Positions 1 to 15,583 of a DNA stretch of 32,000 bases are shown in pieces (the first letter of the stretch is position 1; the number at the start of each line of letters is the position of its first letter). Position numbers and translations under genes: made by a program. The notes beneath the pieces are model-generated. The model was given only the letters and a program-made list of their open reading frames with translations. It made no database searches and was not told where the DNA came from. Origin of the DNA: Promethearchaeota archaeon (lineage in GTDB: Archaea; Asgardarchaeota; Hermodarchaeia; Hermodarchaeales; Hermodarchaeaceae); contig JBHLMI010000022.1 of assembly GCA_048938295.1 (NCBI GenBank), positions 1-32,000 of the forward strand, given 5' to 3'.

Positions 1-64
1 TTTTTTACCATTTTTTTCAGGCAACTCATGCAACTCCATGCTACTAGCAGTTGCTAATGTTAGA

Positions 65-84
65 ATATTCGACATTTTGAATAT
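65..84. promoter_or_regulatory. Palindromic operator ATATTC-N8-GAATAT (candidate ArsR-family site), just downstream of a putative minus-strand promoter
   Basis: Perfect 6-bp inverted repeat at 65-70/79-84. The minus strand has GGGGAAAAGCTTTTATG (BRE+TATA-like) at 107-91, 6 nt upstream of the site. Confidence 0.55.
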
Positions 85-214
85 GTTCAGCATAAAAGCT
101 TTTCCCCTATTTTACGCACTAGATAGATAACCATTGAAATGCTGATAGAATGTGTTTAGAAGGCTTCATCAGCAAACAACATTTTTACTGCGTTGGACGA
201 TGAGCGTTTAATTT

Positions 215-230
215 CCAAAAACTTTATGTA
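215..230 (+). promoter_or_regulatory. Putative BRE + TATA box of the complex I-like operon
   Basis: CCAAAAAC-TTTATGTA, with the TATA-like octamer at 223-230, about 70 nt upstream of the nuoA ATG. Confidence 0.55.
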
Positions 231-247
231 TTAGAATATTTGAATAC
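228..247. promoter_or_regulatory. Second palindromic operator GTATTA-GAATATTT-GAATAC overlapping the 3' edge of the TATA box
   Basis: 16/20 positions are self-complementary, with the same 6-N8-6 geometry as the 65-84 site. TTAGAATATT(C/T)GA occurs at both 60-72 and 231-243. Confidence 0.55.
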
Positions 248-297
248 GTCGGATTGACTTGCTGTAGCAATAAGGTCACCATGAGGACGGTTTGACA

Positions 298-663
298 ATG
301 CAACTTGTAGAATTTGGCCTCATTCTTGTTTTCATTGCACTAATCTTCACATCGTTTCTTGCTTCCATCATTCTTTCTAGACTTGTTAGTCCCAGAAATC
401 CTTCCAAGGAGAAAACAACAAGTTTTGAATGTGGCGAGGCCCCAAGTGGAGCTGGACGGGACCAGTTCGTCTTCAGATATTATCCCTACTTGTTGATGTT
501 CTTAGTGTTTGACGTTTCAGCGATGTTCCTATTTGCTTGGGCGGGGGCTTTCTCCTCGTTAGGCTTCGAGCTTCACATGATTGTGTTAGCCTTCCTTTTG
601 ATTGTTTTACCACCGATTGCATATGCGGTGAATGTGGCGGCGAGGGCCGAAAGGTGGGAATAA
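298..663 (+). CDS. nuoA: NADH-quinone oxidoreductase subunit A
   Basis: Three TM segments, K-x4-FECGEAP loop and [13 protein letters not shown] motif. ATG 298 chosen over TTG 292. Confidence 0.93.
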
Positions 664-665
664 CT

Positions 666-1181
666 ATGACAGGAATCGGTTCAGCCTTTGTTGGTTCGCT
701 CCGCAGTGCCTTGAACCGTGTGGTTAATGTCAAACCATTTCGATACCTGGTGAATTGGTCACGATTGTATTCTCTCTGGCCTGTCCATTTGACGACCGCA
801 TGTTGTAGCGTGGAATTCGGAGCAACGATGGGCTCAGGTTTCGATGCGGAACGACTTGGCGTTCTTCCTCTCGGATCTTTGCGGCAATGCGATCTCCTGA
901 TCATTGAGGGAACTGTAACGAAGAAAATGGCTGAGAGGATTGTTCGGATTTACCACCAGATGGCTTCTCCACGTTATGTAATTGCTATGGGGGCTTGTGC
1001 AATAACAGGCGGGGTCTTTCGAGGTTCTTACAGCATAGTTCCAGGTGTTGATAAGATACTCCCAGTCGATGTGTATGTTCCGGGGTGTCCACCTCGACCG
1101 GAAATGCTCATAGATGCAATTTTGGAGCTTCAACAAAAAATCAGGGAATCTAAGGTGAGTTTAGTTGATGATACAAAGTGA
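666..1181 (+). CDS. nuoB: NADH-quinone oxidoreductase subunit B (N2 cluster)
   Basis: Tandem-Cys [21 protein letters not shown] and [13 protein letters not shown] motifs. The true start is ATG 666; the ORF-track extension to 537 overlaps nuoA. Confidence 0.96.
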
Positions 1182-1479
1182 TGTGTTTGAATTGCAGGCA
1201 GAAATCTGTAAGGTGTTAGCGAATCCTAAACGTATCCGCATTATACACATACTAAAAGATACTGAAAAGACGGTAACAGAAATTTCCCAAGAGCTTGGGA
1301 TTACCCAATCAAATACTTCACAGCACTTAATGAAAATGAAAGCAAAAGGCGTCCTTAAATCACGAAGAGATGGACGCGAGATATACTACAGCATTGCAGT
1401 TCCTGAGCTTTCCCTTGCCTGTGAGTTCGTTGGACGCGCCTTAGAGAAAATCATAGTTAGACCCACGACTATGAGATAG
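1168..1479 (+). CDS. ArsR/SmtB-family winged-helix transcriptional repressor with two Cys (C14, C85)
   Basis: [13 protein letters not shown]...[20 protein letters not shown]...[11 protein letters not shown] pattern. SD GGTGAG at 1154-1159. Overlaps the nuoB stop. Confidence 0.92.
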
Positions 1480-1486
1480 GAGAGGG

Positions 1487-1960
1487 ATGAATTTGTCGAA
1501 GTATCTTAAGGCCATTGAATCCACTTTCACAGAAACAGCCGTTAAGATTAGCGAGAGGTACCCAAACCAACCTGTAATTCGCGCAGACCGTGAATCCCTA
1601 CAATCCATCGCGCAGCATCTAAAAGACACCATAGGATTCGATCATGCAATATCAGTTACAATCATTGATGACATTGAGAATAGCCAGTTTCTGATCGCTT
1701 ACCATCTTTCCTCAGTCCAAATTGTCAAACTTCATGGAATTGTCTTGACCCTAGAAGTAACTGTTCCGAGAGCGAGTCCCCGCTTACCATCCTTGATTTC
1801 AATCTGGCCCAGTGTTGAGTTTCACGAACGGGAGGGATGGGAGATGTTTGGTGTAGAGTTTGAAGGGCATCCCAGGCTTGAACGACTGCTTTTGCCAGAA
1901 TCCTGGGAGGGGGGCAATCCACTTCGAAAAGACTTCAGATTACCGGAGGACTCACAATGA
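1487..1960 (+). CDS. nuoC: NADH-quinone oxidoreductase subunit C
   Basis: EREGWEMFGVEFEGHPRLERLLLPESWEGGNPLRKDF signature. Confidence 0.95.
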   Translation: MNLSKYLKAIESTFTETAVKISERYPNQPVIRADRESLQSIAQHLKDTIGFDHAISVTIIDDIENSQFLIAYHLSSVQIVKLHGIVLTLEVTVPRASPRLPSLISIWPSVEFHEREGWEMFGVEFEGHPRLERLLLPESWEGGNPLRKDFRLPEDSQ

Positions 1961-3036
1961 GTAAAATCGAGTATAGCATGGGTCCCCAACATGCAGGTAC
2001 AGGTCATATGCGTTTGAAGATCCATCTATCAGGTGACCATGTAATCCAAGCGCTACCAGATCCGGGTTATGTGCATCGGGGAGCAGAAAAGCTCTGTGAG
2101 TCAAAGGAATTCCTCTGGAACATTCCTCTCCTTGAACGCGTATGTCTCCCGGATACTACTTCTGCTGCATGGGGATACGTCCTCGCGCTTGAACGGCTAT
2201 TGGGGGTAGAACCCACCGAGCCTGCTCAGTATATGCGCGCTTTATTCGCAGAGATGAATCGAATTGTAAGCCACCTATATTGGCTTGCGATCTTTGGTAT
2301 TTTTCTTGGCCACTCAACGATGTTCATGTGGCCCTTCGCTGATCGTGAACCTTTCATTGCGCTTGCCGAAGCAATTTCCGGGGCCCGATTGACCTACACT
2401 GATATATACCCAACGGGCGTGCGTCATAGACTCCCCGATAATTTTGTGCCACAAATGATGAAGGTAACCAAAAATTTCCGTAGCCGTCTTGTCGATTATG
2501 AGCGGATCTTCTTCACGACCGACATTTTCAAACAGCGAACCAAAGAGGTTGGGGTCCTTACAAAAGAGGAGGCTATTCGATTGGGAACCACTGGACCCGT
2601 TCTTAGAGGATCTGGTGTGAATTATGACCTTCGGAAAATTGATCATTATGGACCTTATTCTAAATTAGATTTTAGACCTGCTGTTATGGATGGCGGGGAT
2701 AGCTACTCCAGGGCAATGGTTCGGTTAGAGGAAATGCGGACAAGTACCTCATTAATTGAGCAAATATTGGAGAAGATGCCTTCAGGAGAGGTCGGGCAAA
2801 GAATGCCGAAGAGAGTTCCCGCCGGCACCGCTTATACACGAGTAGAATCTGCCCGGGGCGAAATAGGGTATCTAGTTGTAAGCAATGGTGAGAAATACCC
2901 AAGCCGTGTAAAAATTAGTACGCCGTGCTTCCGTCACCTTCCAGCTCTTGAATTCTTGCTCAAAGACATTGACCTGGCAGACGTGCCAACCATTTACTGG
3001 AGTCTTGATTACTGGCCACCAAATGCGGATAGGTAG
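1957..3036 (+). CDS. nuoD: NADH-quinone oxidoreductase subunit D (TACK-type, no NiFe site)
   Basis: GPQH, GYVHRGAEK, AEMNRIVSHL, GPVLRGSG, VESARGE and C-terminal SLDYWPPNADR. No CxxC pair at either end. Confidence 0.95.
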   Translation: MSKIEYSMGPQHAGTGHMRLKIHLSGDHVIQALPDPGYVHRGAEKLCESKEFLWNIPLLERVCLPDTTSAAWGYVLALERLLGVEPTEPAQYMRALFAEMNRIVSHLYWLAIFGIFLGHSTMFMWPFADREPFIALAEAISGARLTYTDIYPTGVRHRLPDNFVPQMMKVTKNFRSRLVDYERIFFTTDIFKQRTKEVGVLTKEEAIRLGTTGPVLRGSGVNYDLRKIDHYGPYSKLDFRPAVMDGGDSYSRAMVRLEEMRTSTSLIEQILEKMPSGEVGQRMPKRVPAGTAYTRVESARGEIGYLVVSNGEKYPSRVKISTPCFRHLPALEFLLKDIDLADVPTIYWSLDYWPPNADR

Positions 3037-3042
3037 TGAGAA

Positions 3043-4092
3043 ATGATGCAAATTTTAGAAACGATTAATGTGTTCATTCTGCAGATAATTACCTTTATTC
3101 AAGTGAATTTCACAACCATTTTTCTCATAACCGTCTTCCCGGGTTTTCTCACTATTGTTCTCGCCGCAGCAGCAATAATTTGGTTTGAACGAAAATTCTT
3201 GGCAAAAATGCAATTGCGCGTAGGTCCTCAATATGCAGGACGCATTGGTGGTATATTTCAACCTATTGCTGACTTTTTGAAACTCATCTTCAAGGAAGGA
3301 ATAATTCCCAAACGTGCAGATAGTTTCTTCTATCAATTGGCACCATTACTTATTGTTACCCTTGCAGCTGTAACAGCAACCGTTATCCCTGTAGGGCCCA
3401 ATGCAGTGATAGCTAATCTTCAATTTGGGCTGCTATTTATCTTCGCAGTTGGAGCGATTTTCCCAGTTCTAGCCTTCTTGACTGCGTGGGCGAGTAATAG
3501 CGTGTATCCGTTTCTAGGAGGTTTACGTGCCCTTCTCCAAATGATCGCCTATGAGGTGCCCTTGTGGCTATCGGCCGTAGGCGTAGTTATTCTAGCAGGC
3601 TCTTTCAACCTCACTGAGATTGTTTTAGCACAAAATTGGCTTTGGTTTGTAATTCTCATGCCTCTTGGTGCAATAATCTATTTCATAGCACTCTTAGTTG
3701 AAATTGAGCGCCTCCCCTTTGACTTGCCTGAAGCAGAACCAGAGATTGTGACAGGTTACATGAGCGAATATTCGGGGATGAACTTTGGGCTTATGATGAT
3801 GTCACAATACCTCAAGTTATACCTGGGGGCACTACTATTCACGACCCTCTTCTTAGGCGGATGGTTAATGCCTCCGTTCATCACGAATATGTTTCCATTT
3901 ATTCCACTATTTGTTTGGACCTTACTCAAAACGGCCTTTGTCATTGTCCTCTTCCTAATTCCACGAGGAATCTACCCACGCGTGAAACTCTCGATACTTC
4001 TTCGTTTGGGGTGGAACCGTTTGTTCCTCCTTGCGATTGTGAACCTCTTCCTGGTTGTTGGAATAATGATTTTCTTCGGAGGGATTCCTTAA
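3043..4092 (+). CDS. nuoH: NADH-quinone oxidoreductase subunit H
   Basis: ERKFLAKMQLRVGP, QPIADFLKLIFKE and ERLPFDLPEAEPEIVTGYMSEYSG motifs; about 8 TM segments. Confidence 0.96.
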   Translation: MMQILETINVFILQIITFIQVNFTTIFLITVFPGFLTIVLAAAAIIWFERKFLAKMQLRVGPQYAGRIGGIFQPIADFLKLIFKEGIIPKRADSFFYQLAPLLIVTLAAVTATVIPVGPNAVIANLQFGLLFIFAVGAIFPVLAFLTAWASNSVYPFLGGLRALLQMIAYEVPLWLSAVGVVILAGSFNLTEIVLAQNWLWFVILMPLGAIIYFIALLVEIERLPFDLPEAEPEIVTGYMSEYSGMNFGLMMMSQYLKLYLGALLFTTLFLGGWLMPPFITNMFPFIPLFVWTLLKTAFVIVLFLIPRGIYPRVKLSILLRLGWNRLFLLAIVNLFLVVGIMIFFGGIP

Positions 4093-4520
4093 TGCCAATT
4101 AGAGCATCATGGGCGGGATTCAAACAACTTTTCAAGCGTCGTGTCACAATCAAATATCCAAGTGAAGAATTAGAACTGCCAAAGAGTGAACGCGCGCGGC
4201 ATGTCTTCTATTTCAATCGGTGTATCAGTTGTTCTTTATGCGCTCGAAGTTGCCCAACAGCAGCCATTACTATGATTGAGTATCCTGGAGAGGAAAAACC
4301 GAAAAAACACCCACAGATTGATTATGGCCGTTGCATATTTTGTGGATATTGTGTTGATGTCTGCCCAAAGCATGCTTTAGTTCATTCTCGCTATTTTCAC
4401 CTCGCAACTCGTGAAACTTCACCATTGGTCTATAGTCCAGATCAACTCGCTGAGATTCCTGAAGGAGAAGAGCATCTTCTCCCCTCCGAAGAGGAATTGA
4501 AGAAGGAGGAAGAACCATGA
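4092..4520 (+). CDS. nuoI: NADH-quinone oxidoreductase subunit I (2x[4Fe-4S])
   Basis: VTIKYP, CISCSLCARSCP and CIFCGYCVDVCP. Start ATG overlaps the nuoH stop (TAATG). Confidence 0.95.
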   Translation: MPIRASWAGFKQLFKRRVTIKYPSEELELPKSERARHVFYFNRCISCSLCARSCPTAAITMIEYPGEEKPKKHPQIDYGRCIFCGYCVDVCPKHALVHSRYFHLATRETSPLVYSPDQLAEIPEGEEHLLPSEEELKKEEEP

Positions 4521-5035
4521 TTGATCCATTCTTCTTACCAGATCTTGGAGTGCTTATAATCGGAGTGCTAACGGTTGGTGCGGCGATTGCAGCAGTCGAA
4601 TCCAGAGAAATCGTGTATGGAGCCATTTCATTAGCAGGAATGATCCTAGGGATTGCAGGACTTTACATCTTATTGGATGCAACTTATGCCGCAATGTTCC
4701 AGATCTCTGTGTATATAGGTGCAGTGGTAGTTCTCATTTTCTTTACTATCATGGTCGTCCCATATGAAGTTTGGAGGCACCGACTCAAACGACCATGGCG
4801 TGAATGGCTGATTCCACTAATTATCAATGGTTTTCTTCTCGGTGTGCTTCTCTACATCTTTAACACACCTGCCATTGTCTCAGCCCTTCCTGATCCAGCC
4901 TTCAGTTGGAATATGGCAGACCTAACAGTAGTCCTTCTACAGGATTATGGTGTGGTTCTACTAGTTCTCGGACTCGTACTCGTCTCAGCACTCCTAGGAG
5001 CACTAACTCTAACCAAAAAGGAGAACGAATCCTAA
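4517..5035 (+). CDS. nuoJ: NADH-quinone oxidoreductase subunit J
   Basis: Five hydrophobic segments, QISVYIGAVVVLIFF motif and canonical position between nuoI and nuoK. Confidence 0.9.
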   Translation: MIDPFFLPDLGVLIIGVLTVGAAIAAVESREIVYGAISLAGMILGIAGLYILLDATYAAMFQISVYIGAVVVLIFFTIMVVPYEVWRHRLKRPWREWLIPLIINGFLLGVLLYIFNTPAIVSALPDPAFSWNMADLTVVLLQDYGVVLLVLGLVLVSALLGALTLTKKENES

Positions 5036-5355
5036 TGGCATCACTTTTCGTGTATCTGATAATCGTTGCGGCTCTCGTTGTTATTGGACTCTATGGACTG
5101 ACAAGTAAACGGAATGTCATGCGGTTATTCTTCAGTATTGAAATACTCATGAATGGGGCGAACTTGAGTATCGTTGTATTTGCTCGATACATCCTCTGGG
5201 GAACCGCAGCACTCGCAATTAATGGGCAAGCCATCGTACTTTTCGCAATTTCCCTTGAGGCAGCTGAAGCCGTCGTCGCGCTTGCCATTATTCTACTAGT
5301 TTCACGTGTGCGTGGTTCAGTGGACATCCATGAACTACGTGACTTGGAGGGTTAA
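5035..5355 (+). CDS. nuoK: NADH-quinone oxidoreductase subunit K
   Basis: KRNVMRLFFSIEILMNGANL and AAEAVVALA motifs, 106 aa. Start ATG overlaps the nuoJ stop. Confidence 0.93.
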   Translation: MASLFVYLIIVAALVVIGLYGLTSKRNVMRLFFSIEILMNGANLSIVVFARYILWGTAALAINGQAIVLFAISLEAAEAVVALAIILLVSRVRGSVDIHELRDLEG

Positions 5356-5360
5356 CAGCG

Positions 5361-6893
5361 ATGCAGACACTATTCGACTCGGTCATATTATTCCTGCAAA
5401 TGTATCCACTAACTCTTGGTGTATTCATTCCAATTCTCTTTACTGGGTTAATCCTCTTCTTCGCCCGTCACAGAGAACGACTAGCAATCTGCTTAAGCGT
5501 TCTGGCGATTTTCCTTTCTACTACCCTGGTTTTTTTCCGAGGATTTGATTTATTTCCATTCTCAGCTACCTCACCCGCTTATGTTGCGGAGACAGTTCTC
5601 TGGATTCCTACCCTTAATATCAGCCTCAGTTTCATGCTCGATGGTCTCAATTTCCCCATCGTTCTTATCACAGCAATTGTAACCACACTAATACTTCTCT
5701 TTACTAGACATTACTTCGAAGATGAGAAGAATAGTGGAACCTACATCGCAACCATCATCGTGATGTACAGTGGAATGCTAGGCGTATTTGTTGCTGCAGA
5801 TCTTTTCTTATTCTATCTTTTTTGGGAAATCACAATAATCCCTGCATATGCATTGGTCATCTATTGGCGAGAAGCGGGAGTATCTAAGGAAGACGCTCGA
5901 AGAACCGGTTTGAAGTTCTTCCTTTGGACCCATGTCGGGTCACTTGTCATGCTCATGGGCTTAATCCTCGTTTTCATCCTAACTGGTACAACGAATATGG
6001 TTGATATTCCTATAGCGCTAACAACAGTACCTATAACAAACATCCACATAATGCAATTTGCTGCAGCCGCGCTGATTTTTGGGTTCATCGTCAAACTTGG
6101 TATCTTCCCTGTCCATAGTTGGCTCCCCGACACATACGTCCAAGTGTCCTCACCTGCTACAGCCATGTTTGGTGGACTTCTTGCCAACATTGGGGCTTAT
6201 GGTCTAATTCGTATTGCCACAAGCTGGTTTCCATTCATTATAGCCGCTTGGTCACTTCCACTAGGATTGATAGCGGTAGTCTCAATCATCTATGGTGGTT
6301 ATATCGCGTTAGGCCAAGGAGAGTTCAAGCGACGATGGGCATATTCGAGTGTGAGCCAAGGTGGATACATTCTCCTTGGAGTCGCCTCAGTGACATCCCT
6401 TGGAGTAGCTGGTGCAACTTTTCACATAATCAATTCCGCAATCATTAAATCAGCACTATTTCTCACTGCTGGCGCTTATCTCATGGTTCTGAAAACCACT
6501 GATATTGAGTCCCTTCGAGGCATGGGCACAAAGATGCCGATAACTGGTATTGCCTTCCTACTTATGGCCTTGGCAATGGCAGGAATTCCTCCCTTAAGCG
6601 GATTCATTAGCGAAGTCCTCATCTTCTTGGGGATTTTCACAATTTCAAGTGCCATTATTATTGCTCTAATTGGTGCAGCCGCGATTCTGGTGACTTTTGT
6701 ATATGTACTTGGTCCCATCTACAAACTTTTCGTGGCGCCCCCCAAGACCGAACAACCCCAATTCAACGATCCGAGTTTATGGCAAACGATTCCATTCATC
6801 CTCTTGACAATCTTTGTGTTTATTCTTGGGATTTGGCCTAATCTGGTGTTGACACCGATTGGACATTGGCTACAGAGCATGGGAGGACTCTAA
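5361..6893 (+). CDS. Extra antiporter-like subunit 1 (NuoM/MrpD-like, 510 aa)
   Basis: FWEIT (TM5 Glu), VKLGIFPVHSWLPD (TM7 Lys), YSSVSQGGY and GIPPLSGFISE (TM12 Glu, M-type). The TM8 Lys position is Asn. Confidence 0.88.
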   Translation: MQTLFDSVILFLQMYPLTLGVFIPILFTGLILFFARHRERLAICLSVLAIFLSTTLVFFRGFDLFPFSATSPAYVAETVLWIPTLNISLSFMLDGLNFPIVLITAIVTTLILLFTRHYFEDEKNSGTYIATIIVMYSGMLGVFVAADLFLFYLFWEITIIPAYALVIYWREAGVSKEDARRTGLKFFLWTHVGSLVMLMGLILVFILTGTTNMVDIPIALTTVPITNIHIMQFAAAALIFGFIVKLGIFPVHSWLPDTYVQVSSPATAMFGGLLANIGAYGLIRIATSWFPFIIAAWSLPLGLIAVVSIIYGGYIALGQGEFKRRWAYSSVSQGGYILLGVASVTSLGVAGATFHIINSAIIKSALFLTAGAYLMVLKTTDIESLRGMGTKMPITGIAFLLMALAMAGIPPLSGFISEVLIFLGIFTISSAIIIALIGAAAILVTFVYVLGPIYKLFVAPPKTEQPQFNDPSLWQTIPFILLTIFVFILGIWPNLVLTPIGHWLQSMGGL

Positions 6894-6895
6894 CA

Positions 6896-8521
6896 ATGCT
6901 TCCCGGAATTGCTCTTCCATTCCCATTCCTGCTTCTATCACTTCTCATTCCAGTCATTGCAGGGATTCTTATCCTACTTTCCCTTTTAGTAGGAAAACCC
7001 CTTGGACGAAAAGGTTCCGGAATCATTGCGTCGATTGCCCTGGCAATTTCATTCACCACTCTACTGTATGTTCTTAGTATTGTACTCACTTTAGGACAAC
7101 CAGTCTACGAAGAGCATTATTGGTTCTCAATAGGAACAGTGGTCGTCGAATTTTCACTCCTCGCGGATTTCCTTAGCCTTCCCCTTTCATTGGCAATTGT
7201 TGGGTTGTGTACTGCATCAGCAGTATACAGCATCGAATACATCAAAGATAAACACGATTTTGCCATGTACTATGTTCTGTTACTCCTCTTTGCAGTCGGC
7301 ATGCTAGGAGTGACCATGGCAACGAACCTTCTTGTATTTTTCATCTTCTTTGAAGGTATGAACGTTCCCGCTTACTTCCTTGTCTCCAACTGGGGCACGA
7401 AGAAGGCCAAGATCATCGGCGTGAAATATATCCTCTATGTTTTCATCGGTGCTATTTGTATTCTTGCTGCAATTTTTTGGGTCTTCGGTATCACTAGTGC
7501 TTTGGGTACTCCGACACTAAATATCTATGAGGTCCCAGCACTACTTAGTCCACTTGCTTCAACGAGTCTACTCATCATGCAAAGCCTTGCCCTCCTCTTC
7601 TCCATCGGATTTTTTGTGAAAATGGCAATATTTCCACTTCATTCCTGGCTTCCTGACTTTCATGGAGAAGCCCCAGTGCCGATTCATGCATTATTGAGCG
7701 CTGTCATGATTAAGACAGGGGCTTACGGCTTCATCCGCATTACCTACTTCTTCTTCCCGCTTGTCGTATTACAAGCTTCAATTCTCCTAGCTGTTCTTGC
7801 CATTATCACGATGATTTGGGGAGCAGGTATGGCCCTGGTTCAAACGGATTACAAACGTGTACTCGCTTATAGCTCAGTCAATCAGATCGGTTATATCCTT
7901 CTGGGCTTCAGTACAATGAACATTTTCGGAATCACGGGAGCCCTCTTTCACATCTTAACTCATGGTCTGTCGAAAGGCGTCTTACTCTATACTGCAGGCT
8001 CCGTCGTTCATTCTGCAGGAACGAAACTCATCAACAAGATGGGAGGTTTAGCTTCGAAGATGCCTCTGACAGCAACTCTGAGCACCATAGGCGCATTAGC
8101 TATCGCAGGAACGCCACCACTTGCCACATTTGTCAGTGAGGCCTTCATCTTCATCGGGGTCTTCACCGTAGGTGTCAACTATCCGATTTTTACTGTCATA
8201 GGAGTAATTGGCATCATTTCCACAGCGCTTACTGCAGCGTATTATTTATGGACCGTGCGTCGGATGTTCCTCGGTCCACCATCCACGGAAATGGACAAAA
8301 CATACGAAGAATATCTCGCTGGCAGATACATTTCACCAGAGGGAATTCCACGTCGATTTGAGGAGGCCCATGAATCACCGCCGTTGATGACCATTCCGAT
8401 GCTGATTGTCGCGTTACTCATTATCCTCTTTGGTGTGTTTGCAGCCCTTATTCTCCCAATCATTTATCCCGCAGCTGAAGCGGCCATTGCAATTCTAACA
8501 GCTGCGATAGGAGGACTCTGA
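6896..8521 (+). CDS. Extra antiporter-like subunit 2 (NuoM/MrpD-like, 541 aa)
   Basis: FFEGM, VKMAIFPLHSWLPD, MIKTGAYG, YSSVNQIGY and GTPPLATFVSE. ATG 6896 follows SD GGAGG at 6882-6886. Confidence 0.88.
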   Translation: MLPGIALPFPFLLLSLLIPVIAGILILLSLLVGKPLGRKGSGIIASIALAISFTTLLYVLSIVLTLGQPVYEEHYWFSIGTVVVEFSLLADFLSLPLSLAIVGLCTASAVYSIEYIKDKHDFAMYYVLLLLFAVGMLGVTMATNLLVFFIFFEGMNVPAYFLVSNWGTKKAKIIGVKYILYVFIGAICILAAIFWVFGITSALGTPTLNIYEVPALLSPLASTSLLIMQSLALLFSIGFFVKMAIFPLHSWLPDFHGEAPVPIHALLSAVMIKTGAYGFIRITYFFFPLVVLQASILLAVLAIITMIWGAGMALVQTDYKRVLAYSSVNQIGYILLGFSTMNIFGITGALFHILTHGLSKGVLLYTAGSVVHSAGTKLINKMGGLASKMPLTATLSTIGALAIAGTPPLATFVSEAFIFIGVFTVGVNYPIFTVIGVIGIISTALTAAYYLWTVRRMFLGPPSTEMDKTYEEYLAGRYISPEGIPRRFEEAHESPPLMTIPMLIVALLIILFGVFAALILPIIYPAAEAAIAILTAAIGGL

Positions 8522-8522
8522 T

Positions 8523-10556
8523 ATGTTTCCGTTTGCACAATGGCTTACATGGATCCTCCCAATACTGGGTGCGATTCTTATTGCTTTAATTGGATGGCTT
8601 GACAAGCGAATATCAAAATACATTGCAGTCATAGTTGGTGCAATCGCGGGTATATTCGCTATTTCCATGATTCCAGATATTCTCGCCCTACCCTCGCTGG
8701 GATTACCTTATCTTGAGTCCAATATACCATGGGTTGTCCTTCCAGGAGTTGCAATTTATGTTGGCGTTTTGCTGGATCCACTCAGCGTCTTTATGGCGAA
8801 CATAGCCGTCTTAATCGGCTTCTTAATCATCGTCTATTCTATGAGCTATATGGGTGAAGATAAGAGCCAAACCCGATATTATGCTCTGATTTTACTTTTT
8901 ATCGGCGCTATGGCAGGGTTAGTTCTTGCCAACAACTTTCTCCAGCTATTCATCTTCTGGGAAGTTGTAGGCGTCTGCTCTTATGCCTTGATTGGGTTCT
9001 GGTATGAGAAACCCGAAGCCGCAAGGGCAGGAATGAAAGCTTTTGTTGTTACTCGAGTGGGGGACGTGTTTCTCTTAATTGGAATCGTCTTCCTCTTTAC
9101 ACAAGTAGGATCATTCAACTACATTGTTATTCAAGACGCTGTGGAACTTGGATTGATTAGCCTATCTGCTCTTACCATGACCTCTCTTTTCACCTTTGGA
9201 GGGGCTATGGGTAAGTCGGCTCAGGTCCCCTTCCATGTCTGGCTTCCAGATGCTATGCAGGGTCCAACCCCAGTTAGTGCCCTCATTCACGCAGCAACAA
9301 TGGTGAAAGCAGGAATCTACCTGGTTGGTCGAACTTTCTTCCTTTTCGGTTCTGTCACGCTATGGCTTAACACGGTCATAATAGTTGGCGCAATCACCAC
9401 TATTCTGGCAGCTACTATTGCCTTAGTTTCAACAGATCTAAAGGCTGTTCTCGCATATTCGACCATAAGTCAACTCGGCCTCATCATGGCGGCACTAGGT
9501 GTTGGTACAACTCTTGGTTGGTTTGCAGGGCAAGCACATGTAATGAGCCATGCCATTTTCAAAGCTCTGCTTTTCCTTTGTGCTGGCTCTGTTTTACATG
9601 CAGTAATGACTAATGACATCAACCAGATGGGTGGTCTTCGCCGGAAAATGCCTATCACTTTTGCAGCTAGTTTAATTGGCGTTCTAGCACTCGCGGGTAT
9701 TTTCCCATTTAATGGATTCTGGAGTAAAGACCTCATTTTTGCAGCAACATTACAATCAGGTGCACTCATATCTCTAATTCTTCTTTGGGTTGCTTCTGTA
9801 TTCACGGTTGCCTATAGTTTTCGCTGGATCATCTTGATTTTCATGGGTAACCCACGTAATGAAGAAATTGGTACTCATGTTCATGAAAGTCCTAAGTTAC
9901 TCACCGTTCCACTCATGATCTTAGCTGTTGGAGTCGTTTTTTCTGCGTTTCTAATTCCCACTGGATTACTTGCTACATACTTCGATGCTCATATCCATTT
10001 CGAAATTGAATTAATTCCACTCTTACTTTCTCTGTCCACCCTTGTAATCGGTGGTATACCCGCTATTCTAATCTATAAGTACCGAAAACCCGCACCGGAA
10101 TTCTTTAGTCAGAATCGCATCACTCGTGCACTTCAAACCATATTGAGCAACGGCTACTACTTCGATAAGATTTATGACTGGATATTTGTTCGCGGCACTC
10201 TGCGTATCTTCAACTTCATTCTTTCACGCGTTGAACTTGGGACTATCGACCGATTCCACTACATCTTTGCTCCTAAAGTTGAAGCGGGAAGCCGAATCCT
10301 AGATCAGGTGGTCGAGTCACGAGGATCAAAAGGAGCGAATTACAAGTTTGCACAATTTATGGTGAAAACCTCGATCGCCAGCAACTACGTTGATGCAAAC
10401 ATAGTTGATGGAGCAGTAAACGGTATTGCCAAAGCAGGAGAGAAGGCTTCTAGAAGCCTACGCCGGGTGCAAACAGGCATTACTATGAATTATGTCCTGG
10501 CTTTTGTGGTTGGTATAATTCTACTGATACTCTTTCTTGTGACGTTGGTAGGGTGA
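8523..10556 (+). CDS. nuoL: NADH-quinone oxidoreductase subunit L with an extended lateral helix
   Basis: FWEVVG, GKSAQVPFHVWLPDAMQGPTPVSALIHAATMV, HAIFKALLF and GFWSKD. C-terminal YYFD...QTG helix followed by the final TM. Confidence 0.96.
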   Translation: MFPFAQWLTWILPILGAILIALIGWLDKRISKYIAVIVGAIAGIFAISMIPDILALPSLGLPYLESNIPWVVLPGVAIYVGVLLDPLSVFMANIAVLIGFLIIVYSMSYMGEDKSQTRYYALILLFIGAMAGLVLANNFLQLFIFWEVVGVCSYALIGFWYEKPEAARAGMKAFVVTRVGDVFLLIGIVFLFTQVGSFNYIVIQDAVELGLISLSALTMTSLFTFGGAMGKSAQVPFHVWLPDAMQGPTPVSALIHAATMVKAGIYLVGRTFFLFGSVTLWLNTVIIVGAITTILAATIALVSTDLKAVLAYSTISQLGLIMAALGVGTTLGWFAGQAHVMSHAIFKALLFLCAGSVLHAVMTNDINQMGGLRRKMPITFAASLIGVLALAGIFPFNGFWSKDLIFAATLQSGALISLILLWVASVFTVAYSFRWIILIFMGNPRNEEIGTHVHESPKLLTVPLMILAVGVVFSAFLIPTGLLATYFDAHIHFEIELIPLLLSLSTLVIGGIPAILIYKYRKPAPEFFSQNRITRALQTILSNGYYFDKIYDWIFVRGTLRIFNFILSRVELGTIDRFHYIFAPKVEAGSRILDQVVESRGSKGANYKFAQFMVKTSIASNYVDANIVDGAVNGIAKAGEKASRSLRRVQTGITMNYVLAFVVGIILLILFLVTLVG

Positions 10557-10562
10557 GTCAAG

Positions 10563-12023
10563 ATGGTTCTATGGGAAAATGCATTACTCATATTGATCGG
10601 TGGAGCACTCCTCGGCTCCCTCATCACGTACTTGCTTGGACGGTTCGGTTCAATGATTGTCAAAGGCTTTGCTGTAGCCTGGACAACCTTATTGTTCCTC
10701 TTCACAGGATTATTATGGCTAGGATTCAACCCAAGCACACCAGGATTCTCCTACCTAATTGATATTCCTTGGATACCAGCCCTTGGAATTACTTTCAAAC
10801 TTGGTGTTGACGGAATCAGTTTTCCACTTTTACTAGCAACAACACTTCTTACCCTAGCCGCGGCGATTGGGTCCATGACGCTAATCAAAGAACACGTAGC
10901 CATATACTACGGTACCCTCTTGCTATTAGAGGCGGCCCTCATGGGAGTTTTTATTTCACTAAACCTTCTAGTCTTCTTCATCTTTTGGGAACTCGTGCTA
11001 ATCCCCATGTTCATCTTAATCGGTGTATGGGGCGGTGCAAACCGCCGTTATGCCGCAATGAAATTCCTCATCTTTACCCATGTCGGCAGCATCCTGATGC
11101 TTTTAGGATTCATTATGCTCTTCCTCTTTGCAGGCACCTGGGATTTGACTTACTTCCTCACATCACCCATCCCCTTTGCCGTTGCACTGCCGATAATGAT
11201 CATTACCTTCATTGGATTTGCCGTGAAGTTACCCATCGTTCCCCTTCACACCTGGCTCCCAGATGCACACGTAGAAGCCCCTGCACCTATCAGCATTATT
11301 CTTGCTGGTGTCCTACTAAAAATGGGAGGATACGGCTTCATTCGAATTTCAATCGGCGTATTTCCACAGATTGCAGCTTTACTTGCTCCAGCCATCATGG
11401 GCTTTGGTATCATCACCATCTTCTATGGAGCCCTCGTCGCATTGAACCAACGGGATATGAAACGCATGATTGCTTTGACCAGTATCAACCATATGGGACT
11501 AGTCTTACTCGGAGCATTTACCTTAACAACAATTGGAGTGGCTGGAGCCGTTTTAATGATGTTCAATCATGCATGTGCAATTGGATTGATGTTTTTACTC
11601 ACTGGTGTTATCCAGAAACGTGCTGGAACCCGAAACATCGATGAACTTTCTGGCATGGGCAAATTGATGCCATGGACAGCTCTGTTCTTTGTCTTAGGCT
11701 CACTCGCGTCAATGGGAATACCACTCTTCGCACCGTTTGTCAGCGAATTCATGATCTTTACTGGAACACTTTCAATTCTGCCCATTCTAGTTTTTGTGAT
11801 CCTCGCCCCTGGAATTGTCGTTGCCTACTTCCTATGGACGATTGATCGAATAATTATTTCAGATCCCCATCCCGGAACCCGCATGCGACGAGCCCGCCTT
11901 AGCGAACTTATCGCGCTATTATTACTTCTACTTCCCATCATTCTCCTTGGACTCTTACCAGCTATGATGGTTGACCGAATAGTACCTGCTGTACAGCTCT
12001 TATTAAGTGGTGGAGGTTCGTAA
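10563..12023 (+). CDS. nuoM: NADH-quinone oxidoreductase subunit M
   Basis: FWELVLIPMF, VKLPIVPLHTWLPDAHVEAP, LLKMGGYG and FVSEF; canonical position between nuoL and nuoN. Confidence 0.95.
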   Translation: MVLWENALLILIGGALLGSLITYLLGRFGSMIVKGFAVAWTTLLFLFTGLLWLGFNPSTPGFSYLIDIPWIPALGITFKLGVDGISFPLLLATTLLTLAAAIGSMTLIKEHVAIYYGTLLLLEAALMGVFISLNLLVFFIFWELVLIPMFILIGVWGGANRRYAAMKFLIFTHVGSILMLLGFIMLFLFAGTWDLTYFLTSPIPFAVALPIMIITFIGFAVKLPIVPLHTWLPDAHVEAPAPISIILAGVLLKMGGYGFIRISIGVFPQIAALLAPAIMGFGIITIFYGALVALNQRDMKRMIALTSINHMGLVLLGAFTLTTIGVAGAVLMMFNHACAIGLMFLLTGVIQKRAGTRNIDELSGMGKLMPWTALFFVLGSLASMGIPLFAPFVSEFMIFTGTLSILPILVFVILAPGIVVAYFLWTIDRIIISDPHPGTRMRRARLSELIALLLLLLPIILLGLLPAMMVDRIVPAVQLLLSGGGS

Positions 12024-13493
12024 ATGCAACTTGCTGAATTGGTCACCTTGTTCAATACTCTACTCGCAAGCCCCTTCTTCCCCTTCATCGTATTTGCCAT
12101 TCTCGGATTGCTTACGCCTGTTATTAATCGGATCTTTCGAGGGAAAGTTACGGCTTACTGGCCTTTAGTCAGCCTAGGTATATTTGCCATACTGGTATTG
12201 CCAAGATGGGCAACTGTGCTTACTTCCCCCATTATGACCCCAAGCCTCCTCTTTGATAGTATTAGCCTTTTCTTTGTTACCCTGTTTATCGTTGTTGGTT
12301 TTGCTGTAACCATTGCTTCAATAGATTACTTCAGAGAAAATCACAATCAAGAAATATACTACACTTTGCTGCAATTGGCACTTCTTGGCATGATGCTAAT
12401 TTCTATGGCTGTTGACTTAATTGTCATGTTTGCCGGATGGATTCTGGTCGCCGTTACCAGCTACACCCTTGTTGTGATTCGTAAAGAGGATGCTAAGGGT
12501 GTGGAGGCAGGTGTTAAATACTTCATAATGGGTGCAGCATCCTCCTCCATTCTCTTTCTCGGCATCTCAATAACATACGGACTCACTGGAAGCACCCAAC
12601 TAGCAGAAATTTCTACAGCCTGGGCTGCACTCGATCCGAACCTTATTCCTCTCGCATTACTAGGCGTAATGCTGATTCTTGTAGGATTTGGATTCAAAAT
12701 GGGCATTACCCCGTTTCACATGTGGTTACCTGACACTTACGAAGGGGCCCCACAGCCAGTTTCCGCATTTCTCGGCGGAGGCTCAAACAAAGCTGCATTC
12801 GCTGCTGCTATCCGTGTCTTCATTTTGGGATTTTTAGTTTTCCGCTTCCAATGGACCGCTGCCTTTGCATTTCTAGCCCTAATAACTATGACGTGGGGAA
12901 ACATTGCAGCACTCTCCCAGAAAACCCTTCCAAGATTGCTTGCATACTCAGCTATTGCTCAAGCAGGATACACAATCATCGGTCTAGCTGCTCCAACGGT
13001 CTTAGGATTATCTGGTTTTATGTTTCACGCATTGAATGACGGGGTAGCCAAGACAGGAGCGTTCATTGCAGCAGCAGCCGTTGCATTTACTCTTTCGAAA
13101 ACCAAGCTTTCGGATTACAAAGGCCTGGGCAAGCGAATGCCAATCACTGCGTTCAGCCTAGCGATTCTATTATTAGCCCTAGCCGGTATTCCTCCGCTAA
13201 GTGGTTTCTTCAGCAAACTGATCCTGTTTACAGCTGCCGTTGAAGTTGGATTAATCTGGTTAGCTCTTGCGGGAGTCCTAAACAGTGCATTTTCCCTTGC
13301 ATATTATGGATGGATAATCAAACGAATGTATATGGATGAACCTGATGAATCAGATGCTGATCAAACAGTTAGAGAATCGCGTAAATTCCAATTCGCACTT
13401 GTTGCACTCGCTGCTGCCACAATCCTCATTGGACTATTTAGCGGTATAATTATCGGATACATCGAAACCATGGTAATTGGATTCTACCCCTAA
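12024..13493 (+). CDS. nuoN: NADH-quinone oxidoreductase subunit N
   Basis: EAGVKYFIMGA, FKMGITPFHMWLPDTYEGAP, RLLAYSAIAQAGY and AGIPPLSGFFSK (TM12 Lys). Confidence 0.94.
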   Translation: MQLAELVTLFNTLLASPFFPFIVFAILGLLTPVINRIFRGKVTAYWPLVSLGIFAILVLPRWATVLTSPIMTPSLLFDSISLFFVTLFIVVGFAVTIASIDYFRENHNQEIYYTLLQLALLGMMLISMAVDLIVMFAGWILVAVTSYTLVVIRKEDAKGVEAGVKYFIMGAASSSILFLGISITYGLTGSTQLAEISTAWAALDPNLIPLALLGVMLILVGFGFKMGITPFHMWLPDTYEGAPQPVSAFLGGGSNKAAFAAAIRVFILGFLVFRFQWTAAFAFLALITMTWGNIAALSQKTLPRLLAYSAIAQAGYTIIGLAAPTVLGLSGFMFHALNDGVAKTGAFIAAAAVAFTLSKTKLSDYKGLGKRMPITAFSLAILLLALAGIPPLSGFFSKLILFTAAVEVGLIWLALAGVLNSAFSLAYYGWIIKRMYMDEPDESDADQTVRESRKFQFALVALAAATILIGLFSGIIIGYIETMVIGFYP

Positions 13494-13512: not shown

Positions 13513-14874
13513 TCACTCATTTGGTGGAGTTATTCGTAAGAACCGTCCAACGAGCGTGACAATATCAAGCACGGGAATGTCCAAGCCAAGCTTTTGCATG
13601 CCATGTGTGAGATTAAGCACACAGAAAGGGCAGGCTGTGACAACCATGGTTGCCCCCACATCCACGATTTCACCAACACGCTCCCACGCCATTCGCTCTT
13701 CTAAAGGCATCGCTGCCTTCTCTTCTTCGGAAAGTTCACGATACTCCTTTGAGAGCTTTTTTGCAGCAGCCTTTACTTGAGCAGGTGAACTCCTTGGTTC
13801 AGTATCATAGATTCGCTTTGCAGCAATTTCCAAGGCAAGCTCGGGAATACCAGCTTTGACTCCGCCTCCCGCTCCACAGCACCGAGAGTATTCTCGGGTG
13901 CGACTCATTTCAACCAGTGTAATGCCGGGCAAAAGATTGAGGATTTGCCGTGGAGCATCATAGACACCAACATGTCGACCGAGATGGCAAGGATCATGGT
14001 AAGCAACACGTTCTTTGATGCCTGGAAGAGGTTTAATGTCAATGTTTTCAAGAGCCTTGGCGAGTAATTGAGTAATGTGCTGCACTTTGAATGGGAGTTT
14101 TCCGTAGTATCGTGGCCAATCGAACACGGACGTTCGGAAACATCCCGAGCAGGAATAGACAACGAGTTTGACGCCTTTTTCTTTGATGGTGTCCACATTG
14201 TGTTGGACTAAATCCTTAACAACCTCAATTTGTCCAGTTCGGATGAGAGGGGAACCACAACACCGTTCATCATTCCCTGGTAGCACAAAATCAATATTAA
14301 GTTTATTGAGAATACGAGCCGTGGTGATAGCAAGATGCTGCATTTTATACGAAGAGGTGCATCCAACGAAGTAGGCAACATCAGCGACCTCAGCAACTTT
14401 TACATCGGCGGGAAGCCAATCCGTACGGGAGCGATGATCTTCGCCATACGGGTTAAACTTGGTTTTCACATTGTTCGGCCAGTCCCGCTGACGTTCAAGT
14501 GGACCAAAACCCTGTTTCACCATATCAGCGCGAACCGTTTCCCATAAATCGCAACTTTTTATCCGTGATTCACACACCGTTTGACATTGTCCACACACAG
14601 TACAAAGATACAGATCCTCAACGAACTTGTCGATTTTATTCCTATCAATGACACTTCCCCCTCGAGCACGCCCCATAATTCCATACACATGTTTGACCAT
14701 TTCTCGCAGATTTCGAATTTTTCCACGCGCTGTTACACCTTCACGTTGTAACTGATCAAAGACTGGACAGAACTTAACACATTCACCACAATCAACACAA
14801 GCATCCAGCTCCATCGCCTGCTTCCGCGTTAACTGTGGGAAACTAACCTTTTCCTTATTTGTGGTCACTCTCAT
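13513..14874 (-). CDS. hdrD: Heterodisulfide reductase catalytic subunit D-like (2x[4Fe-4S] plus two CCG domains), Methanosarcina-type
   Basis: MELDACVDCGECVKFCP, CTVCGQCQTVCE, YFVGCT, ERCCGSPLIRTGQ, YHDPCHLGRH, RCCGAGGGVKAG and ACPFC closely parallel Methanosarcina HdrD as recalled from memory. ATG 14874 has a GGGAG SD. Confidence 0.85.
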   Translation of the reverse strand: MRVTTNKEKVSFPQLTRKQAMELDACVDCGECVKFCPVFDQLQREGVTARGKIRNLREMVKHVYGIMGRARGGSVIDRNKIDKFVEDLYLCTVCGQCQTVCESRIKSCDLWETVRADMVKQGFGPLERQRDWPNNVKTKFNPYGEDHRSRTDWLPADVKVAEVADVAYFVGCTSSYKMQHLAITTARILNKLNIDFVLPGNDERCCGSPLIRTGQIEVVKDLVQHNVDTIKEKGVKLVVYSCSGCFRTSVFDWPRYYGKLPFKVQHITQLLAKALENIDIKPLPGIKERVAYHDPCHLGRHVGVYDAPRQILNLLPGITLVEMSRTREYSRCCGAGGGVKAGIPELALEIAAKRIYDTEPRSSPAQVKAAAKKLSKEYRELSEEEKAAMPLEERMAWERVGEIVDVGATMVVTACPFCVLNLTHGMQKLGLDIPVLDIVTLVGRFLRITPPNE

Positions 14875-15583
14875 CAACTCCCGTAATTTCCCGGATATAT
14901 TCCTCCTCCCACTTTTCTTCAATAGCACTGCGGACCATAATTATTGGTGCTGCAATGATATGCTGGAATTTTGAATAAAATAAAACTGCAATCATCGTCC
15001 AAATAATGAAACCGTGAATGATTCCATACCATCCTCGGATACCGATGACATACTCATATGAAAAAGCCATATGCCCTGATATTGCAATGGAAAGTAGTAG
15101 AATCAGTGGCAAGTAGTTATGGAGGTTTGTAACCGCCCGCCCCTCTTTCGAACCAATGCGACTCCCAAAAGCCATTATTACACCGATTACAAGCAATATA
15201 GTCAATACATCATGAGCAATTATTCGCATTTCCAGTGTAGCCCAAGGAAAGAGAATGGTTTCATTGAGCAAAATGAATCGAGGGATCCCATGGAAAAGAA
15301 GGAGACCCACAAATCCTACTATAATGAATCCATGTTTCACCCATCGATATACAGACTGACGTTTAATCGTTCCACCAAACGTCCAGTCAGAAATAACCGT
15401 GTTAATAAAAGCAGTGAGTTTGGTCCGAAAAGGTACATCAATAAGCCAACCAGCAGTATGCTCAGCAGGACCTTTATGCGGTTTCGTCCACCGGACAAGA
15501 ATACGAATGAAACCAATCGTAAAAAGGGCTAGCGCAATCCAACGATAGAAAAATAGAATTTGATATGCTAGCTCTTGTTGCAT
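14855..15583 (-). CDS. hdrE: Membrane di-heme cytochrome b (NarI/HdrE family), partner of HdrD
   Basis: About 5 TM segments, His pairs RWVKH...LLFH and IIH...YSKFQHIIAAP, and IKRQSVYRW motif. Directly upstream of, and overlapping, hdrD. Confidence 0.8.
   Translation of the reverse strand: MQQELAYQILFFYRWIALALFTIGFIRILVRWTKPHKGPAEHTAGWLIDVPFRTKLTAFINTVISDWTFGGTIKRQSVYRWVKHGFIIVGFVGLLLFHGIPRFILLNETILFPWATLEMRIIAHDVLTILLVIGVIMAFGSRIGSKEGRAVTNLHNYLPLILLLSIAISGHMAFSYEYVIGIRGWYGIIHGFIIWTMIAVLFYSKFQHIIAAPIIMVRSAIEEKWEEEYIREITGVDESDHK

Follow-up and report, generated by a model that had tools for sequence, protein, structure and literature searches.

An ArsR gene inside a complex I-like operon

The window analysed here, the first 32,000 nucleotides of contig JBHLMI010000022.1 (assembly GCA_048938295.1, Promethearchaeota archaeon), belongs to an Asgard metagenome-assembled genome, hereafter G000. 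It contains an operon for a complex I-like enzyme with the gene order nuoA, nuoB, arsR, nuoC, nuoD, nuoH, nuoI, nuoJ, nuoK and antiporter-like genes, as read from the list of open reading frames (ORFs). The third gene, arsR, codes for a small winged-helix protein of the ArsR/SmtB repressor family, and its probable role in the control of this operon is the subject of the present report. The features of the locus are collected in Table 1.

The start of arsR is placed at the ATG at position 1168; an in-frame TTG is also present at 1165. The product matches PF01022 (HTH_5; E-value 6.8e-13, 48.7 bits against a cutoff of 22) and NCBIfam NF033788, the ArsR/SmtB metalloregulator subfamily (85.2 bits, cutoff 55), and stays below the cutoff of every named equivalog: BigR (46.9 of 155 bits), PagR (59.6 of 170), SdpR (51.5 of 100) and CmtR (44.3 of 150). 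A preliminary description, made from the DNA sequence alone, had reported a complete ArsR/SmtB gene running over the nuoB stop codon, with its own Shine-Dalgarno-like sequence and ending 7 nt before nuoC, and both the coordinates and the two family profiles agree with it. We infer co-transcription of arsR with the complex I-like genes solely from its overlap with nuoB and the short spacing.

The AlphaFold2 (AF2) model of the protein, built on an 80-row alignment, has a predicted local distance difference test score (pLDDT) of 93.6 and the fold a1-a2-a3-a4-b-b-a5, with helices at residues 6-17 (helix 1), 20-28, 36-43, 47-59 (helix 4, the recognition helix) and 79-97 (helix 5) and strands at 63-68 and 71-76. 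The only two cysteines, Cys14 and Cys85, fall in helix 1 and in the last helix of the model, where the preliminary description had put them, as the codons and the modelled helices confirm.

Table 1. Features of the arsR locus and of the complex I-like operon (positions in the window)
Feature	Position	Strand	Basis or remark
dsrE2-like gene remnant (first 25 codons)	1..75	-	rest of dsrE2, tusA and most of sqr deleted in G000
Candidate operator 1, palindrome ATATTCGACATTTTGAATAT	65..84		exact ATTC-N8-GAAT core at 67-82; 24.4 bits
BRE/TATA-like element GGAAAAGCTTTTATG of the divergent promoter (predicted)	91..104	-	kept in 5 genomes and G007
BRE/TATA-like element CCAAAAACTTTATGTA of the nuoA promoter (predicted)	215..230	+	block CCAAAAGCTTTWWGTA kept in 5 genomes
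Candidate operator 2, palindrome GTATTAGAATATTTGAATAC	228..247		repeat search; ATTA-N8-GAAT at 230-245; 25.7 bits
nuoA, first gene of the operon	292..663	+	PF00507, E-value 3.3e-22
nuoB	666..1181	+	PF01058, E-value 6e-30
Shine-Dalgarno-like sequence AAGGTGAG	1152..1159	+	9 nt 5' of the arsR ATG, within the 3' end of nuoB; sequence
arsR, 103-aa ArsR/SmtB winged-helix repressor gene	1168..1479	+	PF01022, NF033788, AF2 fold
nuoB stop TGA	1179-1181	+	inside arsR, giving a 14-nt overlap; sequence
Cys14 codon TGT (helix 1)	1207..1209	+	Cys in 117/151
Cys85 codon TGT (helix 5)	1420..1422	+	Cys in 108/151
arsR stop TAG	1477-1479	+	7-nt gap before the nuoC ATG at 1487
nuoC	1487..1960	+	PF00329, E-value 2.7e-35
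nuoD, H, I, J, K and five antiporter-like genes	1957..13493	+	ORF list; NuoD matches PF00346
HdrD-like CCG iron-sulfur protein and membrane b-type partner genes	13513..15583	-	convergent with the operon end

Conserved cysteines and the predicted dimer

Conservation of the two cysteines was read from 151 sequences, namely the query and the 150 nearest representatives of 50%-identity clusters out of 1.84 billion proteins. Both cysteines are present in 93 of these sequences (92 of the 150 when the query is excluded), C14 only in 24, C85 only in 15 and neither in 19, and no Cys-rich column exists in the subfamily besides positions 14, 74 and 85. C85 is invariant in alignments of 16 (A1) and 80 (A3) sequences; C14 is invariant in 11 close homologues (A2) and at least 90% conserved across the alignments. 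The recognition-helix motif SQSN[TA]SQHL is likewise invariant among the close homologues. The pair of cysteines, singled out in the preliminary description as a possible switch, is therefore kept well beyond the Asgard clade.

The homodimer model reached an ipSAE of 0.71, against 0.00 for the best control; the mark set for this score is reached by 20 of 30 solved homodimers and by 1 of 23 monomers. Contact agreement between the dimer runs was at least 93%, and pLDDT at least 85. Similar complexes have already been solved, and the pass thus denotes likeness to them, not proof. The modelled interface is formed by helices 1 and 5 (residues 4-27 and 77-96), with contacts C14-C14' and A84-C85' and with the pairs 84-84' and 87-87' on the axis; the pairs C14-C85 and C14-C85' are absent among the 25 lowest-error contact pairs listed. 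In the model both cysteines thus lie at the subunit interface, C14 touching its counterpart, and all four Cys of the dimer are predicted near the two-fold axis, which makes an intersubunit bridge or a four-Cys site geometrically plausible.

Candidate operators and promoters

Two 20-bp palindromes are located within the 290-nt spacer upstream of nuoA, each after a conserved AAAAGCTTT(T)ATG block, one per strand. These blocks resemble the B recognition element (BRE) and TATA box of two back-to-back promoters. Candidate operator 2 starts at the 3' edge of the TATA-like box of the presumed nuoA promoter, and candidate operator 1 lies just downstream of the TATA-like box of the minus-strand promoter. 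Archaeal repressors that prevent the recruitment of polymerase usually bind at such a site, directly after the TATA box. Both palindrome/box blocks are kept in all five genomes with arsR embedded in the operon (type A; see below), and the remaining spacer is not.

In the 2.5-Mb G000 genome a position weight matrix (PWM) gave 25.7 and 24.4 bits at the two palindromes and 17.2 bits at the next best place, a scan that is circular for G000, as this PWM included the two G000 sites themselves. Conserved and unique in the genome, the palindromes qualify as candidate operators. The 17.2-bit sites (C41:5859-5900) were rejected as ArsR targets: they are two tandem palindromes of the type TATTCTA-N-TAGAATA immediately upstream of a gene for a 183-aa PadR-like protein, so called from the look of its N-terminus, and are probably the operators of that regulator itself, unrelated to ArsR.

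Applied to independent loci, a PWM derived from the type A sites only found sites beside several homologues of arsR. The spacer between arsR and a DsrE-family gene in the closed Atabeyarchaeia genome G029 (CP147779) contains three overlapping sites of 19-23.6 bits, the rest of this 8.3-kb locus reaching 11 bits at most. In G007 the stand-alone arsR is preceded by a 20.2-bit site within a homologous block of the same layout as candidate operator 1. At L144, a metagenome contig from ENA with an ArsR 56% identical to that of G000, sites of 17.9 and 20.6 bits adjoin arsR and dsrE, and four bacterial homologues have sites of 14-20 bits at -55 to -67. The exact ATTC-N8-GAAT motif is present upstream of the G007 and G029 homologues; across 76 loci (L066-L141) it occurs four times in 20.4 kb of upstream sequence and four times in 539 kb of background. 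The same motif is the deduced site of Rhodobacter SqrR (PMC9774250), a resemblance that we take as a lead only.

Divergent dsrE2-tusA-sqr cassette

Upstream of nuoA and divergent from it, the G003 genome contains three genes for sulfur relay and sulfide oxidation. The first codes for a DsrE2-like protein of 158 aa (PF13686, E-value 1.5e-43), the second for a TusA-like protein of 80 aa with a CPGP motif (NF001423, E-value 8e-12, below the cutoff of this family), and the third for a type III SQR-like flavoprotein of 405 aa (NF049943, E-value 1.5e-93, below its selenoprotein cutoff). The same cassette is present in G004 and G008, and at least dsrE2 and sqr in G002.

In G000 this cassette has been deleted save for remnants of dsrE2 and sqr. 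The end of contig C16 overlaps the start of the window by 77 nt, C16 and C22 being contiguous, and within C16:48900-49329 codon 25 of dsrE is fused, out of frame, to residue 339 of SQR. Contigs from three sediment runs, with depths of 26.7, 14.9 and 2.9, show this joint, which skips 1750 nt, and a contig of 7.3 kb spans it. Portions of the lost segment occur in other contigs at depth 3-6, so that minor relatives keep it.

Conservation and decay of the embedded gene

The arrangement nuoA-nuoB-arsR-nuoC-nuoD, with the same overlap, was found in four of the 14 congeneric species genomes, G002, G003, G004 and G008, which together with G000 make up type A; the submitters' labels of the close relatives are Promethearchaeota, Thorarchaeota and Odinarchaeota. 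Their ArsR proteins are 80-95% identical to that of G000, and the embedded gene is also present on two metagenome contigs (P0003, 84% ArsR identity; P0011, 64%). The ratio of nonsynonymous to synonymous substitution rates (dN/dS) of arsR is 0.065 between G000 and G003; in most other pairs dS is saturated and dN amounts to 0.10-0.14, comparable to nuoB. Judging from these rates, the gene is under strong purifying selection. Its intact presence in five genomes and two contigs, with dN/dS about 0.05-0.1, rules out a one-off insertion, which would have undermined the regulatory role first suggested for it. In the related operons of G011, G012 and G027, whose NuoD is about 52% identical, nuoB directly adjoins nuoC. 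The operon was not found in the other eight congeners (assemblies searched, 72-89% complete).

Two further congeners, G014 and G007 (type B), have the operon at a syntenic position, with NuoD 65% identical and flanked, as in type A, by genes for a 442-aa protein, UbiA, polyprenyl synthase and geranylgeranyl reductase. Their nuoB-nuoC gap is occupied by a decayed ArsR ORF of 84 aa in G014 (L026 2047-2301, minus strand) and 115 aa in G007 (L051 144-491, minus strand). Still recognisable as ArsR (29% identity, BLASTP E-value 5e-9), these relics have helix 1 missing or altered and prolines in the recognition helix, and the G007 relic has lost all Cys. The dN/dS between the two is 0.61, and their branches in the ArsR tree are very long. 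Both relics are still open frames with a common MNLTN start; the frames may be kept open for translational coupling, or the loss may be very young. The type B loci lack both the divergent sulfur cassette and the type A operator pair. An intact regulator thus co-occurs with operators and sulfur genes, and the embedded gene has decayed where both are absent. The type A PWM found no site at the type B locus of G014. In G007 a palindrome ATCTTCGAATATTCGCATCT (L061 1330-1349, 16.5 bits) is located 38 nt upstream of nuoA and may be a site for regulation in trans.

Elsewhere in its genome, G007 has an intact stand-alone arsR (81% identical, both Cys) opposite a truncated dsrE-like gene, and the spacer between the two is homologous to the type A spacer upstream of nuoA. 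The GGTG-N-TTTAG stretch ahead of the embedded arsR of G000 also precedes this copy, and similarity 5' of the start covers only about 22 nt, that is, the Shine-Dalgarno-like sequence and spacer. The module of truncated dsrE, promoter and arsR (L059 9421-10300, G007:C4) sits between a winged helix-turn-helix gene and a Fae/Hps fusion gene. At the syntenic site of G000 (end of C7 and start of C44, contiguous by a 77-nt overlap) there is a small unrelated ORF instead, so that the module must have moved or been lost. In G029 an ArsR homologue, 60% identical, likewise faces the DsrE-family gene. Decayed copies on the one hand and stand-alone copies on the other indicate that an intact arsR travels with its promoter, operator region and dsrE and not with the nuo genes. 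The natural series from embedded intact gene through embedded relic to stand-alone gene shows that the regulator tracks operators and not structural genes. Ten of 15 inner branches of the ArsR tree are open, and the stand-alone copy of G007 is not placed relative to the embedded ones; the rearrangement was either a deletion of nuoA-nuoB from an embedded ancestor, or the dsrE-arsR pair is ancestral.

Homologues in other phyla and their neighbours

A scan of GTDB species genomes yielded 278 relatives, and neighbour clustering with Pfam annotation was performed on the best 80 of the 278 loci. The nearest relatives outside Asgard archaea belong to Nitrospirota (Thermodesulfovibrionales), are 48-58% identical and all have both Cys. 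In seven Nitrospirota loci arsR is located directly upstream of rnfC and rnfD, with a PCMT gene ahead of it in six of the seven; the Rnf-linked loci are L068-L072, L074, L075 and L055, the last containing the full six-gene rnf operon. With these loci, the ArsR clade is found for a second time at the head of genes for a ferredoxin-linked ion pump.

Genes for sulfur handling are the other recurrent neighbours. Seven deltaproteobacterial loci comprise arsR followed by an SQR-like gene, DsrE genes flank the homologues in seven further loci, mostly actinobacterial, and one Chloroflexia locus has the order arsR-dsrE-tusA-sqr. The actinobacterial homologues combine C14 with I or L at position 85 and lie beside DsrE and a ferredoxin-NrfD (polysulfide-reductase-like) gene. 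At L144 (96-3549), where C85 is kept and C14 is replaced by Ile, genes for tusA, a NarI-like cytochrome b and a CCG (HdrD-like) protein are divergent from arsR, and dsrE follows it; the PWM sites are in the tusA-arsR spacer and upstream of dsrE. These gene families appear to echo the HdrDE-like pair at 13513-15583 of the window. The neighbour clusters common to Asgard and bacterial loci are not NuoB, NuoC and NuoD; Pfam assigns them to SQR-like proteins, DsrE and TusA. No embedding inside a nuo operon was seen among the bacterial two-Cys homologues in the 80 loci inspected.

Proposed role of ArsR and alternatives

The best explanation, to which we give an even chance, is that ArsR represses a respiratory module linked to sulfur, its own gene included, and is probably released by sulfane sulfur or by oxidation of its thiols. 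The dimeric ArsR/SmtB-type protein, presumably translated from the transcript of the complex I-like genes, would bind the two palindromes just after the TATA-like boxes of the back-to-back promoters and thereby block recruitment of RNA polymerase. One of these promoters would drive nuoA-nuoB-arsR-nuoC through nuoN, and the other the dsrE2-tusA-sqr cassette, deleted here and intact in relatives. As the repressor is encoded inside the operon that it would repress, negative autoregulation is proposed. Release would follow modification of the cysteines near the dimer axis, C14/C14' in helix 1 and C85/C85' in helix 5, the likely agents being sulfane sulfur, as persulfide or polysulfide, or a different oxidant of thiols; reactive sulfur would modify these Cys and so bring about expression of the module. 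The repressor would in this way couple the nuo-like operon to the dsrE-tusA-sqr cassette.

The preliminary description had already proposed an autoregulatory thiol- or sulfur-sensing switch. That proposal gains from the conserved insertion, the conserved Cys, their place in the modelled interface, the candidate operators and the context of sulfur genes, and is weakened by the hydrophobic character of the Cys positions and by the decay of the gene in two lineages. The link to sulfur has become stronger than in that first reading, with dsrE2-tusA-sqr divergent from nuoA in relatives and SQR-like, DsrE and TusA neighbours in other phyla.

Several observations weigh against a sulfur-responsive repressor. 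The sulfur cassette is deleted in this very genome. In type B the operon is kept with only a decayed arsR, so that control by arsR is not obligatory, and decay of the embedded copy in two lineages points to a gene tied to an operator-bearing promoter and dispensable to the nuo genes; together with the deletion of the cassette in G000, it indicates that the arsR/cassette circuit is evolutionarily labile. At the protein level, C14 and C85 occupy buried positions of the core, aligned with the hydrophobic residues F20 and L91 of CzrA (hand alignment), relatives without Cys carry L, I, F, V, Y or M at these positions, and apparently intact homologues have lost one Cys or the other, those with C14 only or C85 only in the set of 151; the two residues could thus serve packing alone. 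The helix 2/helix 5 Cys pair of SqrR and BigR is missing, H27 and E93 occupying these places, and the protein reaches less than a third of the cutoff of the BigR equivalog NF040642 (46.9 against 155 bits). Rv0081, to which the protein is closest among solved structures, lacks any sensor site (bioRxiv 10.1101/465575). As for the operators, the exact motif, unlike weaker PWM matches, is not general upstream of bacterial homologues and is rare there, two of the four upstream matches being Asgard loci, and the recognition helix, QSNTSQHL, differs from that of SqrR, so that the resemblance of the operators may be generic.

Much of this evidence would also fit a plain autorepressor without a thiol switch, similar to Rv0081, in which the cysteines are only small hydrophobic residues of the dimer core. 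Such a protein would bind the same operators, would respond to a non-covalent ligand, to a partner protein or to nothing, and would damp or set the expression of the operon. We regard this as rather unlikely, and nevertheless as an alternative to be taken seriously: Rv0081, the best solved relative, leads a complex I-like operon and has no canonical sensor site, both Cys are in the modelled interface, and the hydrophobic replacements and single losses described above speak for it as well. It is opposed by the specific retention of Cys in 72-78% of the 151 sequences, there being no other Cys-rich column, by the association of the two Cys (odds ratio about 4.9, not corrected for phylogeny), and by the repeated occurrence of genes handling sulfane sulfur next to the regulator. 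The same neighbours, which are sulfur-relay and not metal efflux genes, argue against a metal or Fe-S sensor in which C14, C14', C85 and C85' ligate a metal ion or cluster and tie the operon to metal, Fe-S or redox status. The classical role of ArsR/SmtB proteins is metal sensing through sites in the dimer interface, the two Cys of each subunit come near the two-fold axis in the model, and relatives precede the Fe-S-rich Rnf operons in seven Nitrospirota loci; but the known metal sites are absent, H27 and H53 are the only His, and we know of no ArsR metal or Fe-S site at these positions (compare PMC11672702). This explanation is improbable in our judgement.

If the real target were dsrE2-tusA-sqr only, the place of arsR in the nuo operon would be a historical accident that supplies its expression, as the stand-alone homologues beside dsrE or tusA (G029, G007 and L144) and the decay of the embedded copy where cassette and operators are absent from the nuo locus might suggest. 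However, candidate operator 2 lies directly on the presumed nuoA promoter and is kept in five of five type A genomes, and in G000, where the cassette is deleted, arsR (with the low dN/dS against G003 given above), both operators and the operon are intact, which makes a mere passenger quite improbable. Genes in operons for multi-subunit complexes usually encode subunits, and the 14-nt overlap suggests translational coupling of arsR to nuoB; the protein might then be an accessory subunit or assembly factor recruited into the complex. Given its invariant recognition-helix motif, the recurrence of matching operators, stand-alone homologues far from nuo genes and the persistence of the operon with a decayed copy, this is highly improbable.

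The sulfur-responsive repressor can be extended further, into a form that we advance only tentatively and find doubtful. The axis cysteines C14/C14'/C85/C85' would be an undescribed sensor site at which sulfane sulfur or an oxidant cross-links the subunits, and a large ArsR clade, so far uncharacterised and spread over Asgard archaea, Nitrospirota, Deltaproteobacteria and other groups, would be defined by it, a clade that gates ferredoxin-linked ion pumps (Nuo-like, Rnf) and sulfur-relay genes. In these Asgard archaea, the complex I-like enzyme with five pumps, an HdrDE/DsrMK-like reductase and DsrE-TusA-SQR would then form one sulfur-responsive regulon. If true, conserved helix 1/helix 5 Cys grouped at the dimer axis would represent a novel sensor geometry. 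To the physiological role of Asgard complex I-like enzymes, a regulator with a readable operator offers a testable hint; the ties to dsrE-tusA-sqr and HdrDE-like genes hint at a complex I-like enzyme in a sulfur-linked electron chain. As a small soluble protein, ArsR can be tested in vitro without cultivating the organism.

Other genes of the operon and its surroundings

Genes for NuoE, NuoF and NuoG are absent from the operon in the ORF list. NuoD (1957-3036, 359 aa) retains one Cys of the hydrogenase N-terminal motif (ERVCLPD) and lacks the C-terminal CxxC, its C-terminus being DYWPPNADR, and is therefore not the large subunit of a NiFe hydrogenase. The HdrD-like protein encoded beyond the operon end contains the CCG domain (PF02754, E-value 3.2e-36), and its membrane partner has weak matches to QmoC, TmcC and HmcE; this HdrDE-like pair is possibly part of the same sulfur-linked module as the nuo operon.

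A conserved block of likely isoprenoid or quinone genes adjoins the cassette or operon in G003 (L058, G003:C1, 111-4936), G014 (L060, G014:C5, 1208-6232) and G007 (L061, G007:C105, 1947-4585). It comprises genes for a UbiA-type prenyltransferase, a polyprenyl synthase and a geranylgeranyl reductase-like flavoprotein, of which the reductase was assigned by Pfam and the others were named from sequence. The block fits a quinone-based chain around the complex I-like enzyme.

Comparison with known regulators

Among characterised regulators, the protein shares with SqrR, BigR, YgaV, HlyU, sHdrR and SoxR the ArsR/SmtB fold and two Cys per subunit, one of them in helix 5. Known members of this type repress sqr or sulfur-relay genes and autoregulate, and the deduced SqrR site forms the core of both candidate operators found here. 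The genomic link to sqr and sulfur-relay genes exists also for the Asgard regulator, in G003, G004 and G008 with their divergent dsrE2-tusA-sqr. The known ArsR-type sulfane-sulfur sensors, however, all use a helix 2/helix 5 pair within one protomer that forms a polysulfide bridge (C41/C107 in SqrR), and RexT has vicinal Cys in helix 3 (PMC11672702). In the protein studied here, H27 corresponds to SqrR C41 in the HMMER alignment and E93 to C107 by extrapolation of that alignment, as the preliminary description had anticipated in stating that its Cys positions differ from those of SqrR and BigR. Its own Cys are in helix 1 and the middle of helix 5, on the modelled dimer axis, so that any bridge would probably be formed between subunits. 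It further differs from the SqrR type in its archaeal host, its location inside a complex I-like operon and its recognition helix. The sites of metal-type ArsR proteins are missing as well: helix 3 (VTEISQEL) contains no Cys and hence no CxC, and helix 5, without any His or Asp, lacks the D/H-x-H ... H-x-x-H pattern.

The closest solved relative by sequence is Rv0081 of Mycobacterium tuberculosis (PDB 6JMI, chain 6jmi_A; E-value 3.2e-15), an autorepressor co-transcribed with the hyc/Ehr operon Rv0081-Rv0088, which resembles complex I and group 4 hydrogenases, and acting through an upstream inverted repeat (bioRxiv 10.1101/465575). Rv0081 is the first gene of its operon, whereas the Asgard arsR is the third, between nuoB and nuoC; Rv0081 carries F and L at the positions of C14 and C85 in the alignment, and it belongs to a bacterium and lacks sulfur-relay genes beside it.

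In Thermococcales, the redox-switch regulator SurR, whose winged helix-turn-helix is related to ArsR, is released from DNA on oxidation of its Cys in the presence of elemental sulfur, and so switches the genes for the complex I-like membrane enzymes Mbh and Mbs; it is larger, has three domains with an N- and a C-terminal winged helix-turn-helix fold and a CxxC motif (24, 27) in the first of these, recognises motifs of the GTTn3AAC type and acts as activator and repressor (PMC12162507). The Asgard protein, in contrast, has 103 aa, a single winged helix-turn-helix and no CxxC, and is encoded inside the operon that it would control, which is not the case for SurR. The proposed logic thus resembles that of SqrR and SurR, and the defining features of neither family are present.

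Close to the protein are also the uncharacterised two-Cys homologues of Nitrospirota, Deltaproteobacteria and other groups, 45-58% identical and with the same C14/C85 and the same SQSN.SQHL helix; unlike the embedded arsR, their genes are first in an operon or stand alone. Literature searches, with incomplete coverage, found no characterised homologue with the helix 1/helix 5 Cys pair, and neither such a Cys site nor the location of an ArsR gene within a nuo operon was described in the papers found. ArsR-type regulators tied to complex I-like operons are already known from Rv0081, and ArsR-type sulfur sensors from SqrR; new in the present case, and described in no paper found in the literature covered, are the position of an Asgard arsR between nuoB and nuoC, the conserved set of axis Cys, shared by a large uncharacterised clade, and the proposed regulatory link between the five-pump operon and sulfur-relay genes.

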